From NCBI RefSeq assembly GCF_013167455.1, contig NZ_CP038328.1: a stretch of DNA of 64,000 nt, one strand, 5' to 3'. Positions 49,601-55,600 of the stretch are shown piece after piece. The position numbers were made by a program. The stretch is from Escherichia coli O157:H7. Its GTDB lineage: Bacteria; Pseudomonadota; Gammaproteobacteria; Enterobacterales; Enterobacteriaceae. Within the stretch, counting starts at the first letter, position 1; the number at the start of each line of letters is the position of its first letter.

Positions 49601-52600
49601 CAGATAGCTGAAACGTATTTTGCCTGGTAACGGGCGTCATCAAGTGCATTATGGCGCTCACCTTCGAATGGAATAGCCGTTCTGGCATCGAAGTCTATGG
49701 CTTTCCCCAGCTCAACGATTGTGCGTACATCGCGATCGTTGTAGTAACGCCACGGGCAGGGGCTCCCCTGCCGTTCGTATGAACGGCGCAAAATCGTGTT
49801 GTCGAAGTTGGCTCCATTTCCCCAGACATGAACAAAAAATTCACCGGAGTTTTCGTCGATAAATTCCCGCAATTGTAACAGTGCATCATCTAACGGGATT
49901 TCATCGGTCATAATGGCAGATTGCGCTTCGCGTGATTGTTTAAGCCACCATTTCATGGTGTCCCGATCAATGACTCCGCCAGCAGTATCCAGATCGATAG
50001 TCTTACTAAATTCCGGTCCCATATCTCCGGTTTGCGGATCGAAAAATATTGCACCTATTGAGATAATCGGGGCATCGGGATTTTTTCCCATGGTTTCAAG
50101 ATCGATCATCAGATGAATCCCCGCTCTGCTGGTGGATGTGAGATTATGATGACCGTTCGCCTTAATTAAGGGATCTGACGCCTCGCCAGTTTCACTATCG
50201 CTGGCATGATGCTGATTGCCGCCAGTGTTCTCCTTGTGCTGATGTGCAGTACCTTCCATTTCCTCCGGATCATTTTCCTGAACTTCAGGCTGATTCTCTC
50301 CATCGAATATTTCCTGGTATGTTGCGTCACCCATCACCGCACCACAATCAGGGCAGTTGCCGCCACCGCTCTGACCGCAGGCGGTGCAGATCTTTTCCGG
50401 TTCCTGTTGCACTACTGGTTCAGGTTGTTTCGTTTCTGGCTCGTTTTGTTGCGTATTTGGGCTGTTTTGTTCCGCTTTCTGGTCGTTCTGTTCCGTTTCT
50501 TGCTGGTTCTGGTTCACAGAATCGCGGGTCTGGATCCCCTTAACCCATTTCGGATCATTCGGGTCGCTAATCCCTTCAACAAATTCACCACGTGATACTG
50601 CAAGCAGTTCCTCGGCGTCAGGCTGGCTGATATTGGCTGCCTGCATAATTTTCTTTACTTCGTCAGCGGTAACTTTTACCGGTTCTGGTTGTTCAGAATT
50701 TTGTGCGGTATTTGCATTTTGCGGTAAGCCTGTGTATGTGCCATTTTTTCGGGCAAAATATTCTTCTTTTGTGATTTCAGTAGCCCCGGCAGCCAGCGCC
50801 TTATCCAGACCAGAAAGTTTGTTTGCGCGACCGTATTTTTCGCCATCCTTGTCGGTGAAGAGGAAGTAGAACGGCCCCTCACGTTCTACAGATGGTTCGA
50901 CTTCCACTTTGCATTCGGTTTTTTCGTTGTCTGGAATTGCCGTTTCCACTGCATCAGTTTCTGGTACTGGCGACGAGAGAGTATCAGTTGCGCTCTGATT
51001 TGTTCCTTCATCTTCAAACACGCCCTTTGTAGTCAGGTATTCAGTAATGTATTTGTTCAGTGCCACAGGGTCTTTGTGAATGTCGATCGGACGTTCACGG
51101 ACAAGGCCAAAAATAGTCTGGCGGTCGTAGCGAAGGGCATCAGGCTGTTTGCGCATTGATGCCGAGATACGCTTCCAGTCTTCGCGGCCGTTGTCGATAA
51201 CTTCATTTTTTGCCCAGCGATGGATGCTGCCGTCAATGTTTCCGGCATCCACATCACCAGGCCAGAGAGCGTAGGCCAGTTCGTCATCCAGTGTTTTCCA
51301 TGTCTGCTTGTATTCGCGATGAATGGCAGCAATGACCGGGTTGATTTTTCCTGTTGAATTTTCAGTGTGCTGTTGATTGGCTCTGGCGCGGGCGAGATCA
51401 ACAACAGACGTGTATTTTCCGGCTTCCTTGCGTTCACCTTCGCGACGTTTTTTCCAGATGCGCATCTCTGCCTGAATTTCGGGCCATTTGGCACCAGGCT
51501 TACATTTATGCTTAACCCACCCGATGGCATGCAGCTTAAGCTCCGGATACATAGCGTTAACTTCTGGCATTTTCATCAACGCTTCAACGATATGGCCGTC
51601 GAATGTTGCCATGTCTTCCTGCAACAATTCCTGTGCGCTAATCACCATATCAACAGTGATGTTTTCACATGTGTCGAACTTAACCATGACAGCGTTCTGT
51701 ACTTCAGGGGCCAGGTTGTCAAAAGTGACGTTCATCGGATCGGATTCAGTCTCGACCGGGACAAAGGAAGCAGACGCCTCATCCCAGCGGTTTTCCTGCA
51801 TATATTCAGCATCCCAGGAATCGAGGGCAGGGCGGGGTATACCGGGTTTATCCTCGCAAACAAGAAATTTATAAGCGCAGTCCTGAGCAGCCGGATAATG
51901 TTCCAGGAATTGCCAGTGAAATTTTGCGCGGGCGCGACGTTCATCACCGGCTTCAATGGCAGTGGCTACAGCGACGGCACCTTCTTCCTTTATTGCCTGT
52001 TCGTCCGGAATGGCGGCGCAAATAAAGACTTTACTCATTTTGTTTTACCTCATTACAGATTTAAGGGTGAACAAATCCCTGCCATTGCTGGCATATAAGA
52101 ATGAAATCGGATGTTTATTACGGAACTGTTTTAAAGACCTGCCGGGATTTCGTTATTATCCTGGTGAATAACTTTATCGACCGGGTAACAGTTACCGGGA
52201 ATTTTCTGTTCGGTTGCTGCAGTCACACACTCCTGCATTGTCCTGTGAACACTGACTGCAATATCAACTGGCTCTCCGGAAACAAGAAAAACTGTCAGAA
52301 CAAGTGCAAATGCTGTATTCATTGCCAGCATCCTTTTTGTATCGGACGTAAACGGGCCAGCATTGAAAGAATGCATATTTTATTTAATAGCTCCCGTTCG
52401 TGTTTTCTCTTGTTAATGGCATCTTCAGTAAATACAGGGTTACTGATAGTGACACCAATTTCAAAACAACCTTCAGACGTATTAACGTTTGGTAATAACG
52501 TTTCCATTATCGCGTCCTCAACAATGAATTTTGTGATGCGGTGCCTGGTGCCTCCAGGTGACGTTAACCAGTTAACAATTAACGCCGGATACAGAGAATC

Positions 52601-55600
52601 CCCCCATAACACTGTTTTTGGTTTTAACTGTTCCGCGTGCGCTCAGCCGCATTCACCGCATCACAAAATTCACTTTAAAAAGGGCGGCAGAGCAGTCACG
52701 GAGTAAAACTGATACCGCCAAACGTCACCAGAAAATTGATAACAGAGGGCGTTGCAGCGGGGTTGTCACTTAAGCGTATGGTCAACCTGACAACCCGGTG
52801 TCCTCAACGGGGGAAGGAATAACCCCTCCATACTTACCGCCGCGCCATTTCGCGGATTGCCACAACCGGAAGCGCACGGTCGACGAAAATTTAACGACAG
52901 GCTATCTATGAACCAGCTACCTCGCCGTGCGCTTTCGCGTTATGGTCTGACTTTTCAGGGAAATATCCTTTCAGTAAACTGTCAGTGCCGTATGCTCACC
53001 CGTGTCCGGCGCACGCACTCCACCTCACCCGTGGAGAACTCCTTAATTACCAACCTTAGCTTCGTTGGTTAGCTATTAACGCGGGTATGTAATCATTCTG
53101 GCAATGCTTAATGCCGCTGCTTTTTCCAGATTGGTGATATCCTGCTCCAGAGCGGACAGATTTTCAGCCTGCTTAGCCCTGGCTTCATTGGCCCATTTCA
53201 GATCCTGCGCTGCATTAATTTTCTGGTGCATCCACTCATAAAGTTCATCATCGGTATAGTCTGGCGCGATGATGACGGGTTCTCGTTTCTGCATGTCGGC
53301 TCCTTGTGGTTAGCGTTGCCTGCTTTTAACCACGTCAGGCGAGGTGGTATCCTCTGAGGGGTCTGTTACTCGAGAGGAAATTGGTTATGAATACAATCAA
53401 GTTTTCTTGCCCAGAATGTGGTGGCGAAGTCTTTGACACATCCTTTAAGCCGCAGGGCTCTGACAGTTTCGCGGGAGCCATCTGCAAAAATTGTGGTCAC
53501 CTTGTAACTGAAGATGAGTCCTCGCAGTTCGATGACGAAATCGTTGACAATATCTTCGGTGCACTCACCAGAGACTTTCTGAAGTAAAGGCGCATACCGC
53601 TTAGTTACCGCTCTGATAACTCTTACCTGTCCTGCAATGGCGCTGATGTCAATATAAAGCGCCATTGCTGCTTCTTTGCCGATCCCGGGATGCCTTCCAT
53701 TCTGATGTTTGACTTCGCCCACTGAGAAACCCTCTGTTTCCCCTTAACGCCGGGGTAGCGGAACAAAAAACTGCTGCATAGTTATTAAAGTTGAACCCTG
53801 CCGTCATGTTCATACGCCTCGGGCTGGCTACTTAACCCCTGACCACTGCCGGGTAACTCGAAGTATTTCCCTGCGTTCTGTGGGGCGGGGTGGGTTGGTA
53901 TTTTTAGTTTAATAAACATTAAACTTAAGTCAAGTAAAAACTAAACCGCGGGACATAACAAACACAACGCTTTTGATAAAGTCGTTGCGGTTGTTATGTT
54001 TCTATTGGTAGTGAAAGTTAGGGAAACTGGCGTCTTGCGTGGATCACGTTTACTACTTCAACGCTTGATGTTGTTACGCGGTATAGAATTATATAGTTAG
54101 GGTGGGCTACAATCTCACGCAAGCCAGGTACTCTGTCGCTTGGTGGGTATAAATACGGATGTTCGGATAACGGCAGCACACAACCCCTTAATCGCTGCCA
54201 TAAGCGTTCAGCCGCATCTATGTCGAAACGAGCAATATAACTAGTTATATCATCTAGGTCGGTATCTGCGCTTTCAAGCCATAACACGGGTAACATTTTA
54301 CTGCTTGCTCCGTTCCTTGCGCATCTTAGCAAAGCGTTCTGCCATTCTGCGCTCAACTTCGTCATGGGGAATTGCTGGGCGCGGATCTGCAAGGCTCGTT
54401 GCTACTTTCGCACGCAGCCATTCGTTGTAACTGTTTTCTTGTTCAATGGTTTCAAATTCAGAAACCATTGGTGAAAGGGCTCTATTCATGTTTCCTCCGG
54501 TTTTATAACTCAGGCGCGGCGGCATTTTTGCGCCGCAATCCATCTCGCTATGAGATCTTCCATTGATTCTTTTTTCTGCTTTAACTCGCTGATTATCTGG
54601 CGTTGCTCATCCTCAGGGAAGGCTGAAAAAATCTGCAATAATTCCAGTTGATTAGACGTTAACCCTGCATGTGGTGGAGAACCCCCCGGTTGTTCTGCGT
54701 ATTCCGCATCCAGATACCCTTCCGGCATCCCGTATGTTTGCTCTATTCTTCTGGCAGCCTTTTCTCCAAACGAGGCTCTCCCACTCATTAGTTGAGATAG
54801 GTAGCTCTTCTCTTTGGGTGGCAGAGTTTTATCTTTAAACCACTCCTTGAGACGTAAACGGCGAATTTCTTTTTTTTGCATGTGGTAATTATCTTTAGTA
54901 ATCACTAAACAAGCAAATACTTGACTTAATGGTTTATTAAACACTAAACTCGCAAAAAAACACTAAACCGAGGAAGGTATGACATTAAAAGAGTTTATTA
55001 AATCATTAAGGGTTGGTGATGCTAAGAAATTCGCGGCCAGACTTGGTGTATCGCCATCTTACTTATCGCAAATGGCGTCTGGACGAACAGCTATATCTCC
55101 AACCCGCGCCCTTATGATCGAATCTGCGACGGAAGGCCAAGTAAGTAGGGCGGAGCTACGACCCCATGATTGGGAGCTTATTTGGCCTGAGTATGCGAGC
55201 GGCATTCGTTTGGGGCAAACACATGTAGTTCATGCTGAAGGTGATTGTAGTGCATGCTTATCTGATGGAGTTGATTCATGAAAATCAAGCATGAACACAT
55301 CCGCATGGCGATGAATGTCTGGGCGCATCCGGACGGCGAAAAAGTACCGGCTGCGAAAATTACCAAAGCGTATTTCGAGCTGGGAATGACGTTCCCGGAA
55401 CTGTATGACGACAGCCATCCGGAAGCCCTGGCCCGTAATACCCAGAAAATTTTCCGTTGGCTGGATAAAGACACCCCTGATGCTGTTGAAAAAATGCAGG
55501 CTCTGTTACCGGCGATCGAAAAGGCGATGCCGCCTTTGCTGGTGGCCCGTATGCGCAGCCACAGTTCTGAATATTACCGTGAGATCGTCGAACGGAGGGA

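Follow-up and report, generated by a model that had tools for sequence, protein, structure and literature searches.

Does a defective prophage of Escherichia coli O157:H7 still encode products that act on its host, and, if so, which repressor would hold them in check? We addressed this for a stretch of 64,000 nucleotides (nt) of contig NZ_CP038328.1 (RefSeq assembly GCF_013167455.1), hereafter the window, in which an original prediction, made from the sequence, had placed DicF, a small RNA (sRNA), together with the genes dicB and ydfD on the minus strand at 52131-52734. Our reading, to which we assign a probability of about 0.9, is that this module represents the DicF-dicB-ydfD cassette in the early-left (PL) operon of a defective lambdoid prophage of the CP-933P type, located at the Qin site, with transcripts from PL presumably reaching dicF and dicB. 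Coordinates refer to the window, and lengths of proteins are given in amino acids (aa).

DicF, dicB and ydfD on the minus strand

The following features of the module were identified.

52682-52734, minus strand: DicF sRNA, 53 nt (Rfam match and identity with K-12; terminator hairpin at nt 15-52)
52319-52507, minus strand: dicB, 62 aa (NCBIfam NF049927, 132.7 bits against a cut-off of 100, residues 1-62 of 62)
52131-52322, minus strand: ydfD, 63 aa (Pfam PF07358, DUF1482, 87.9 bits)
52101-52706, plus strand: spurious antisense open reading frame (ORF), 201 aa (stop in K-12; not called by the NCBI annotation pipeline PGAP)

In a gathering-threshold scan of the whole window, Rfam RF00039 (DicF) matched at 52733-52682(−) with 76.7 bits (E = 3.6e-15) against a gathering score of 48, with model positions 1-52 of 52 aligned. 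The 53-nt RNA at 52734-52682(−) is identical to K-12 dicF at 53/53 positions, including the 5' and 3' pairing regions. Its intrinsic terminator consists of an interrupted GC-rich hairpin, GGCGGUAUCAG...CUGCUCUGCCGCC, followed by UUUUU at 52681-52677. A simple terminator scan with a loop limit of 8 nt did not report this terminator because the hairpin loop exceeds that limit, and the call rests on Rfam and folding rather than on that scan. Downstream, dicB is followed by ydfD, with the dicB stop and the ydfD start overlapping as ATGA at 52319-52322; the proteins share 55/62 (DicB) and 59/63 (YdfD) residues with K-12. Scores above curated thresholds, together with this near-identity, establish DicF, dicB and ydfD, and the DicF terminator and the ATGA coupling of the two genes are found where the original prediction had placed them.

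DicF had also been predicted to lie below ORF-based annotation, which is true in practice, as it is unlisted in the annotation of O157:H7 TR01 and of K-12, and none of the 12 RefSeq E. coli records among the matches listed (3,977 matched) carries an annotated feature over it. With a 65-nt DicF query, 3,968 genomes were found to hold copies at no less than 90% identity, at as many as 7 sites in a single genome. The plus-strand ORF is the longest frame across the interval and might be taken for the real gene, with the minus-strand features secondary to it. We consider this extremely improbable, since the frame is broken by an in-frame stop in K-12 while dicB and ydfD are intact there, PGAP does not call it, and the minus-strand products match curated families above threshold. 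The ORF is therefore spurious, as had been proposed; the accompanying statement that it covers DicF holds only in part, because, while dicB and ydfD lie wholly within it, its overlap with DicF is limited to 25 of the 53 nt.

The molecular targets of the three products are known from the literature. DicF pairs at the ribosome-binding site of ftsZ and thereby represses this gene, and xylR and pykA are further targets; the ftsZ pairing has been validated genetically in K-12 (PMC5069750). In enterohaemorrhagic E. coli (EHEC) under low oxygen, DicF is reported to act on pchA and stx2A (review PMC7873438). K-12 DicB acts through MinC on FtsZ and on ManXYZ (bioRxiv 10.1101/2023.04.14.536235), and YdfD has been described as a lysis protein inhibiting IspG (PMC8835842).

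A PL-type promoter with PaaR2-type operators faces the module

According to the original prediction, loss of the prophage repressor would unleash DicF and DicB. The elements that bear on this claim are as follows.

53906-53933, minus strand: PL-type promoter TTGACT-16-TAAACT, with the same hexamers as PR, facing ydfC-dicF-dicB
54921-54950, plus strand: PR-type promoter TTGACT-18-TAAACT, driving ydaS and ydaT
54510-54881, minus strand: paaR2-type CI-like repressor gene (coordinates of the RefSeq homologue; phrog_5736 transcriptional regulator, 134 bits)
54298-54489, minus strand: paaA2 antitoxin gene, 63 aa (PDB 3ZBE, 126 bits; NCBIfam RelB antitoxin, 84 bits)
54018-54296, minus strand: parE2 toxin gene, 92 aa (PDB 5CW7, 202 bits)
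54979-55281, plus strand: ydaS, downstream of the PR-type promoter
55278-55703, plus strand: ydaT, 141 aa (PDB 8BT1, CP-933P YdaT, 311 bits)

A K-12-type Qin prophage is recognized by the immunity genes for DicA and DicC and by dicBp upstream of ydfA, and neither is found here: tblastn with the K-12 proteins found none of DicA, DicC, YdfA, YdfB and Rem in the window, which rules out K-12-type control by DicA. The repressor gene product itself gave a weak, partial match (28 bits) to the C-terminal part of DicA. The arrangement is instead that of CP-933P, in which paaR2-paaA2-parE2, with paaA2 and parE2 following the repressor gene and co-transcribed with it, diverge from ydaS-ydaT, operators of the GTTTAGTAA type are present, and PL shares the PR hexamers. 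Both promoters are embedded in operator-like repeats with the half-site ACTAAAC/ATTAAAC; a cluster of TTTAGTAATCACTAAA, GTTTATTAAACACTAAAC and AAACACTAAAC surrounds the PR-type promoter, and a perfect palindrome, GTTTAATgtttATTAAAC (53924-53907), lies between the -35 and -10 elements of the PL-type promoter.

In CP-933P, 18-bp palindromes with the consensus GTTTAGTAA are footprinted by PaaR2 and YdaS, and PL933P is repressed about 100-fold by both proteins in green fluorescent protein assays and is active when unrepressed (PMC8630535). PaaR2/YdaS expression is reported there to be bistable. Because the promoters and operators match this published description, the predicted repressor over the module is PaaR2 of CP-933P and not DicA, and 53906-53933(−) would, by the same fit, correspond to PL933P. 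The proposed effect of repressor loss thus stands in principle, since a PL-type promoter with PaaR2-type operators faces the module, with the correction that the repressor would be PaaR2. Transcription from PL would then run through dicF into dicB, about 1.2 kb downstream.

The start of paaR2 may lie further upstream than in the RefSeq homologue, within the ORF 54510-54944, since PaaR2 is described as leaderless with a product of about 15 kDa (PMC8630535). An inverted repeat of 22 bp with a loop of 3 nt (53953-53999) immediately follows the parE2 stop, close to the PL-type promoter on its upstream side, and may be the terminator of the paaR2-paaA2-parE2 operon.

Evidence for and against an expressed cassette

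Several points weigh against a functional, PL-driven cassette. This exact copy is known here from sequence alone, and as the K-12 regulators DicA, DicC and Rem are absent from the window, K-12 regulatory results are not directly transferable. About 600 nt separate PL from ydfC and hold the convergent ECs_2282 gene (53387-53587(+)), to which PL transcripts would be antisense, as it is encoded on the opposite strand. The CP-933P study gives no function to the ORFs downstream of PL933P and treats dicB only as a positional analogue of kil (PMC8630535). Even in K-12, a transcript spanning ydfABC-dicF-dicB was not detected by Northern blot (bioRxiv 10.1101/2023.04.14.536235), so that read-through of the DicF terminator is possibly rare. 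As for the products, DicB differs from its K-12 counterpart at 7 of 62 residues, 4 of them among the last 8, and its division-inhibitor activity is a prediction. The predicted duplex between DicF and ftsZ of O157 TR01 covers the ftsZ Shine-Dalgarno sequence and start codon; its full-length RNAduplex energy was equalled by 133/1000 shuffles and by several neighbouring genes, and the energy was therefore dropped as a test of DicF targeting, given that it discriminated from neither.

These points raise the question of whether we are dealing with a silent fossil, a cassette whose sequence is intact but which the defective prophage never expresses and which has no effect on the host. The truncated integrase and the deleted attL would fit such a state, as would the missing K-12 inducer Rem and regulators, and three of the four DicF copies listed by RNA-seq in EDL933 had 0-5 reads in LB, while one reached 128 reads per kilobase per million (RPKM), the copies not being matched to the present one (PMC5331693). 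However, none of the three genes is disrupted, and the DicF sequence is that of the functional K-12 allele. The PL-type promoter and its operators have been kept as well, the homologous PL933P is active when unrepressed, PaaR2/YdaS expression is reportedly bistable, low-level DicF reads are on record for EDL933 (PMC5331693), and DicF is reported to act in EHEC. In addition, the module is present at a coverage of at least 80% in 2,709 of 5,426 complete E. coli genomes, which argues for retention. A silent fossil thus appears quite improbable, and the reading that we prefer remains a cassette that would be expressed from PL upon derepression.

A conserved structured RNA between dicF and dicB

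In the same set of genomes, partial or complete copies of the 1.5-kb module were found in 4,761 of the 5,426, and three weak matches (two plasmids of about 90 kb and one chromosome) consisted of the dicF-dicB spacer only. This spacer is an element in its own right.

52523-52674, minus strand: structured spacer and dicB leader, 152 nt, STnc100-family type B (folding, Rfam, reciprocal model, covariation)

The spacer contains a perfect 19-nt inverted repeat (52525-52543/52654-52672) that extends to a 21-bp closing stem (52674-52654 with 52543-52523), and the dicB Shine-Dalgarno sequence, GAGGA at 52519-52515, lies 3 nt past this stem. The core at 52663-52534 folds into five helices: P1, an AAU linker, a bulged P2 (loop UGAGC), a variable P3, P4, and P5 (loop AGGCA). 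Compared with shuffles, the minimum free energy of the spacer corresponds to z = -4.8. In the whole-window scan the spacer matched Rfam STnc100 (RF02076) with 39.7 bits (E = 4e-5), below the gathering score of 47, and the prophage also has a canonical STnc100 copy, with 101.8 bits, at 63692-63864(+). This copy follows the phage tRNA cluster at a distance of 0.8 kb and precedes by about 175 nt the start of a nanS-p-type esterase gene, which lies just past the end of the window. The terminator part of RF02076 (positions about 170-206) aligns poorly in the spacer, where it runs into the dicB coding region, and is largely deleted in the canonical copy of the window; the spacer thus lacks the 3' terminator hairpin of its own that would be expected for STnc100. 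In the reciprocal direction, a covariance model, R1, constructed from the dicB/kilR-leader (type B) copies only, found the canonical copy at 63719-63830 with 57.4 bits (E = 2e-14), all five helices being aligned, whereas the best background score was 15 bits. The assignment of the dicB (and kilR) leader as a sub-threshold member of the STnc100/PasD family, bounded by a known RNase III site, is structurally well supported.

Members of this family have been described as sRNAs. EcOnc27/sRNA103 is an Hfq-bound sRNA overlapping STnc100 downstream of stx2B (PMC12711010), and PasD, judged homologous to STnc100, is Hfq-bound with support from RIL-seq (bioRxiv 10.64898/2026.05.13.724894). In EDL933, 10 of the 11 Rfam-annotated STnc100 copies are transcribed at an RPKM of at least 97, and STnc100_4 was confirmed by Northern blot (PMC5331693); for the spacer copy, no record of a discrete Hfq-associated RNA was found. 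No link of the STnc100/PasD/EcOnc27 family to dicF, dicB or kilR was found in the accessible literature; the Pas preprint mentions none of the three genes (bioRxiv 10.64898/2026.05.13.724894), and an O157 outcome study considered kilR at −25 only. The dicB-leader copy shares with these sRNAs the five-helix architecture, the invariant GGUGAAU and UCACCNGGAGGCACCNGGCACC, and a prophage location, and the two types of model detect each other. Compared with canonical STnc100, the dicB-leader copy is sub-threshold, lacks the terminator part of the model and has the 21-bp extended closing stem; a kil-type gene follows it directly in the early-left operon, in contrast to canonical copies, which are found in the late region near tRNAs, stx and nanS-p.

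Further copies scoring 34–40 bits with RF02076 occur in K-12 Qin, in Rac-type prophages directly upstream of kilR and in P1-like plasmids among tRNA genes, and mEp460, Shigella Stx phages, P7/D6 and Klebsiella phages are among the temperate phages that also have the spacer. Viral contigs, scanned with a sequence pattern, gave 111 copies, which fall into two subtypes; the two free motif positions always pair, as G…C in 72 copies and as T…A in 39, with 0 exceptions. Because the search pattern fixed the UCACC and AGGCA stretch, the invariance of that stretch follows from the way in which the copies were picked. From a MAFFT alignment of 35 non-redundant copies, RNAalifold predicted P1, the bulged P2 and P5; 99.5% of the cells were paired, compared with 32–45% when the partners were slid, and double changes occurred in 8/19 pairs. 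The same alignment displayed GGUGAAU, a UNNGC loop, UCA and the AGGCA loop as invariant or near-invariant single-stranded motifs. In type B alone, the five-helix structure was 98.2% paired with six double-change pairs. A model-fitted alignment of 42 copies, which is biased toward the model, gave double changes in 24/33 pairs and 95.4% of cells paired versus 36–41% when slid.

Among the type B copies, a CCGCCCTTTT terminator lies ahead in 29/39, and in most type B copies the ORF of a DicB variant or of KilR begins 22–29 nt further downstream. A 112-aa ORF downstream of some copies was rejected as a probable artefact of the first-ORF rule. The Rac kilR region reproduces the arrangement at the same operon position, with a DicF-like terminator hairpin (Rfam DicF, 39 bits), then a type B element that scores 35.5 bits with Rfam and 128 bits with R1, and a small FtsZ-inhibitor gene 22 nt downstream; it differs in that the DicF seed is missing from the Rac hairpin and that its protein, KilR, has no relationship to DicB. 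In one Rac-type prophage (L005), this hairpin, at 2951-3006 and directly before the type B element and kilR, scored 39.1 bits with the Rfam DicF model, which is sub-threshold, without the DicF 5' seed.

Elsewhere, the element occurs in other settings. In two P1-like phage-plasmids, a type B element (L003 2998-3124; L004 2938-3055) lies between tRNA-Ser and a tRNA with the anticodon CAT (tRNA-Ile according to PGAP), and a second, more divergent copy is found past the latter tRNA (L003 4656-4772; L004 3536-3652). Viral contig L064 contains five STnc100-type elements (5011-5141, 6983-7881) between a tRNA-Met/Arg pair and a 654-aa esterase gene, four of them in tandem at a spacing of about 260 nt, without convincing ORFs.

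A tRNA-like nature of the spacer, suggested by P1 stacked on P5, a D-arm-like P2 and the phage tRNA neighbours, was rejected, as no tRNA model matched at E ≤10 and ARAGORN found only the true tRNAs; the likeness remains a topological resemblance only. Nucleotides 6-14 of DicF (GGUGACGUU, 52721-52729) show full complementarity to the P4/P5 junction in the spacer (AACGUCACC, 52557-52565), both on the minus strand, and the pairing is extendable to 13/14 pairs. This complementarity was equalled by 40/2000 shuffles, which makes it too weak as a basis for any claim; it might reflect an alternative fold in cis, an action of DicF on the dicB leader, or chance.

RNA processing and a proposed mechanism

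In K-12, DicF is cut from a polycistronic RNA: a 190-nt species owes its 5' end to RNase III, the mature 5' end is made by RNase E, and the 3' end arises by termination (bioRxiv 10.1101/2023.04.14.536235). RNase III also yields a 72-nt DicF (PMC5069750). Two transcriptome-wide studies of RNase III mention DicF as background only. Upstream of dicF, the window contains a further candidate substrate.

52859-52945, minus strand: long imperfect hairpin (core inverted repeat 52867-52879/52925-52937)

A 5' end 190 nt before the terminator would lie near 52867-52871, within the helix's 3' strand, and RNase III probably cuts this hairpin to set the 5' end of the 190-nt precursor of DicF. At the other side, 19 nt past 52682 is 52663, which is the 12th nt of the 21-nt 5' arm of the spacer closing stem, an arm whose sole partner lies 110 nt downstream. 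Since the end of the 72-nt DicF at about 52663 falls within this arm, the long-range spacer stem is likely to form in vivo and to be the RNase III substrate that gives the 72-nt DicF. If both strands were cut, a core of about 130 nt would be freed and the leader remaining on dicB would measure about 28 nt.

On this basis, and with PaaR2 repression of PL933P and the RNase processing taken from the published work cited above, we propose the following sequence of events. In lysogeny, PaaR2 bound to operators at PR/PRM and PL would keep the operon nearly silent. When repression is relieved, PL transcription would proceed through ydfC into dicF, RNase III would cut the long hairpin upstream of dicF, and RNase E and the intrinsic terminator would define the mature 5' end and the 3' end of the 53-nt DicF, respectively. 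Read-through of the terminator would produce the 152-nt structured leader, dicB with the translationally coupled ydfD, and then exo and xis; RNase III acting at the 21-bp closing stem of the leader would generate the 72-nt DicF, and the same cut may release the folded core of about 130 nt together with a dicB mRNA carrying a short leader. DicF with Hfq would then pair with the ftsZ ribosome-binding site, with metabolic mRNAs and, in EHEC, with pchA; DicB would recruit MinC, blocking FtsZ rings, and inhibit ManYZ; and YdfD would inhibit IspG, leading to lysis.

What the spacer itself contributes is less certain. We tentatively regard it, at somewhat less than even odds, as a third product of the cassette, a five-helix RNA of about 130 nt of the STnc100/PasD family that RNase III would excise from read-through transcripts and that would either gate or time the kil gene in cis or act in trans as an sRNA beside DicF. 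Such roles are suggested by the fact that the same RNA directly precedes two unrelated FtsZ-inhibitor genes, dicB and kilR, each behind a DicF-type terminator. Alternatively, the spacer might be a mere RNase III processing hairpin without a function of its own, its likeness to STnc100 stemming from shared phage ancestry or module shuffling. The coincidence of the extended stem with the published RNase III cut and the Rfam score under the gathering threshold (39.7 vs 47) are in line with this simpler account, and so is the fact that most compensatory differences separate only two lineages, type A and type B, and thus possibly reflect few evolutionary events in copies spread by recombining prophages. 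A plain RNase III site, however, needs only a duplex, whereas the core inside the stem retains five helices in which 24 of 33 pairs are doubly changed, is 95% paired against 36-41% in the slid controls, and shows compensatory changes within type B too. The single-stranded motifs are invariant or near-invariant, with the reservation that the UCACC/AGGCA stretch was fixed by the search. Furthermore, copies in the P1-like plasmids and upstream of nanS-p have a P1 of 7-8 bp and therefore no RNase III duplex, yet retain the same core, and the relatives EcOnc27 and PasD are Hfq-bound sRNAs. We judge a processing hairpin alone to be unlikely and keep the third-product reading as a tentative one.

Relation to known systems

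The cassette is already known prophage biology, and multiple DicF copies in O157:H7 have been documented. The closest counterpart is the dicBF operon of K-12 Qin (ydfABC-dicF-dicB-ydfDE), which occupies the same site by rspA/ynfA in the same order, ydfC-dicF-spacer-dicB-ydfD-exo, with nucleotide identities of 100% (DicF), 98.3% (spacer), 99.1% (ydfC), 97.4% (ydfD) and 94.2% (dicB). It differs from the present prophage in that the latter lacks ydfA, ydfB and DicA/DicC/Rem, carries the CP-933P immunity region (paaR2-paaA2-parE2, ydaS-ydaT) in their place, and has an intact exonuclease gene (823 aa) that is truncated by IS2 in K-12. With CP-933P of EDL933, PaaA2, ParE2 and YdaT match the solved proteins, and the operator half-site and the twin promoters fit the publication, in which PL933P is not connected to dicF/dicB beyond a division-inhibitor gene 3' of paaR2 (PMC8630535).

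The PL operon of phage lambda is a repressor-controlled leftward early operon with kil, recombination genes, xis and int, and has RNase III sites in the N leader and in sib. The present operon resembles it as a leftward early operon under repressor control with a division inhibitor, recombination genes, xis and int, and RNase III processing of a polycistronic RNA, an analogy also drawn in PMC8630535. Unlike in lambda PL, no N or nut homologues were identified here, and the division inhibitors DicF RNA and DicB are unrelated to lambda Kil.

What the present analysis adds is the predicted control by PaaR2 of CP-933P instead of DicA, and the placement of the dicB/kilR leader in the STnc100/PasD family. 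Wiring to the bistable PaaR2/YdaS switch predicts that a PaaR2-OFF subpopulation would also make DicF, DicB and YdfD; if true, a prophage switch stabilized by a toxin-antitoxin system would be linked to division arrest and, through DicF, to EHEC virulence regulation. For the abundant STnc100/PasD/EcOnc27 family, the dicB and kilR leaders provide genetically tractable copies in K-12 (Qin and Rac) as well as a concrete processing hypothesis.

Prophage context and further features

The surroundings of the cassette identify a prophage at the chromosomal site of K-12 Qin, next to rspA/ynfA. The remaining genes of the operon and its neighbourhood are listed below.

53387-53587, plus strand: ECs_2282-family CxxC zinc-binding protein gene (57 bits, cut-off 37)
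53076-53294, minus strand: ydfC, 72 aa (71/72 identical to K-12; phrog_1744)
49567-52038, minus strand: intact exonuclease gene, 823 aa (phrog_2082, 1841 bits, full length)
49243-49494, minus strand: excisionase gene (TR01 annotation carried over via 99% collinearity)
about 48583-49208, minus strand: integrase remnant of about 0.6 kb, frameshifted and 3'-truncated, abutting an rspA fragment, then ynfA

The sequence of elements along the minus strand is repressor, antitoxin, toxin, promoter region, (convergent ECs_2282 gene), ydfC, dicF, dicB, ydfD, 823-aa exonuclease, xis, integrase remnant, rspA fragment and ynfA. The 1.5-kb module is 100% identical to that of E. coli O157:H7 TR01, with which the window is collinear at 99.0–99.6% identity apart from IS1203 in the TR01 exonuclease gene. 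This gene, which belongs to the same operon downstream of ydfD and is the full-length form of the K-12 ydfE remnant, has thus been split in TR01, by IS1203, and truncated in K-12, by IS2. In the integrase-remnant region, no minus-strand ORF longer than 68 aa was found. Compared with K-12, 48460-49208 lacks the 3' part of int, the whole of rspB and most of rspA, so that the left attachment site is gone. The term cryptic, used for the prophage in the original prediction and for CP-933P in the literature, is therefore justified by an integrase reduced to a frameshifted 0.6-kb remnant that abuts the rspA fragment.

Three further features were observed elsewhere in the window. A hok/sok type I toxin-antitoxin locus is located at 59579-59903(+), with sok RNA scoring 116.9 bits and HokD 98% identical to K-12. 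Downstream of the Q antiterminator gene, 62669-62915(+) holds three phage tRNA genes, Ile/Arg/Arg in the TR01 homologue. In the host part of the window, 484-544(+) gave a sub-threshold Rfam match to STnc390, a Salmonella sRNA (30.8 bits vs 50, E about 0.01).

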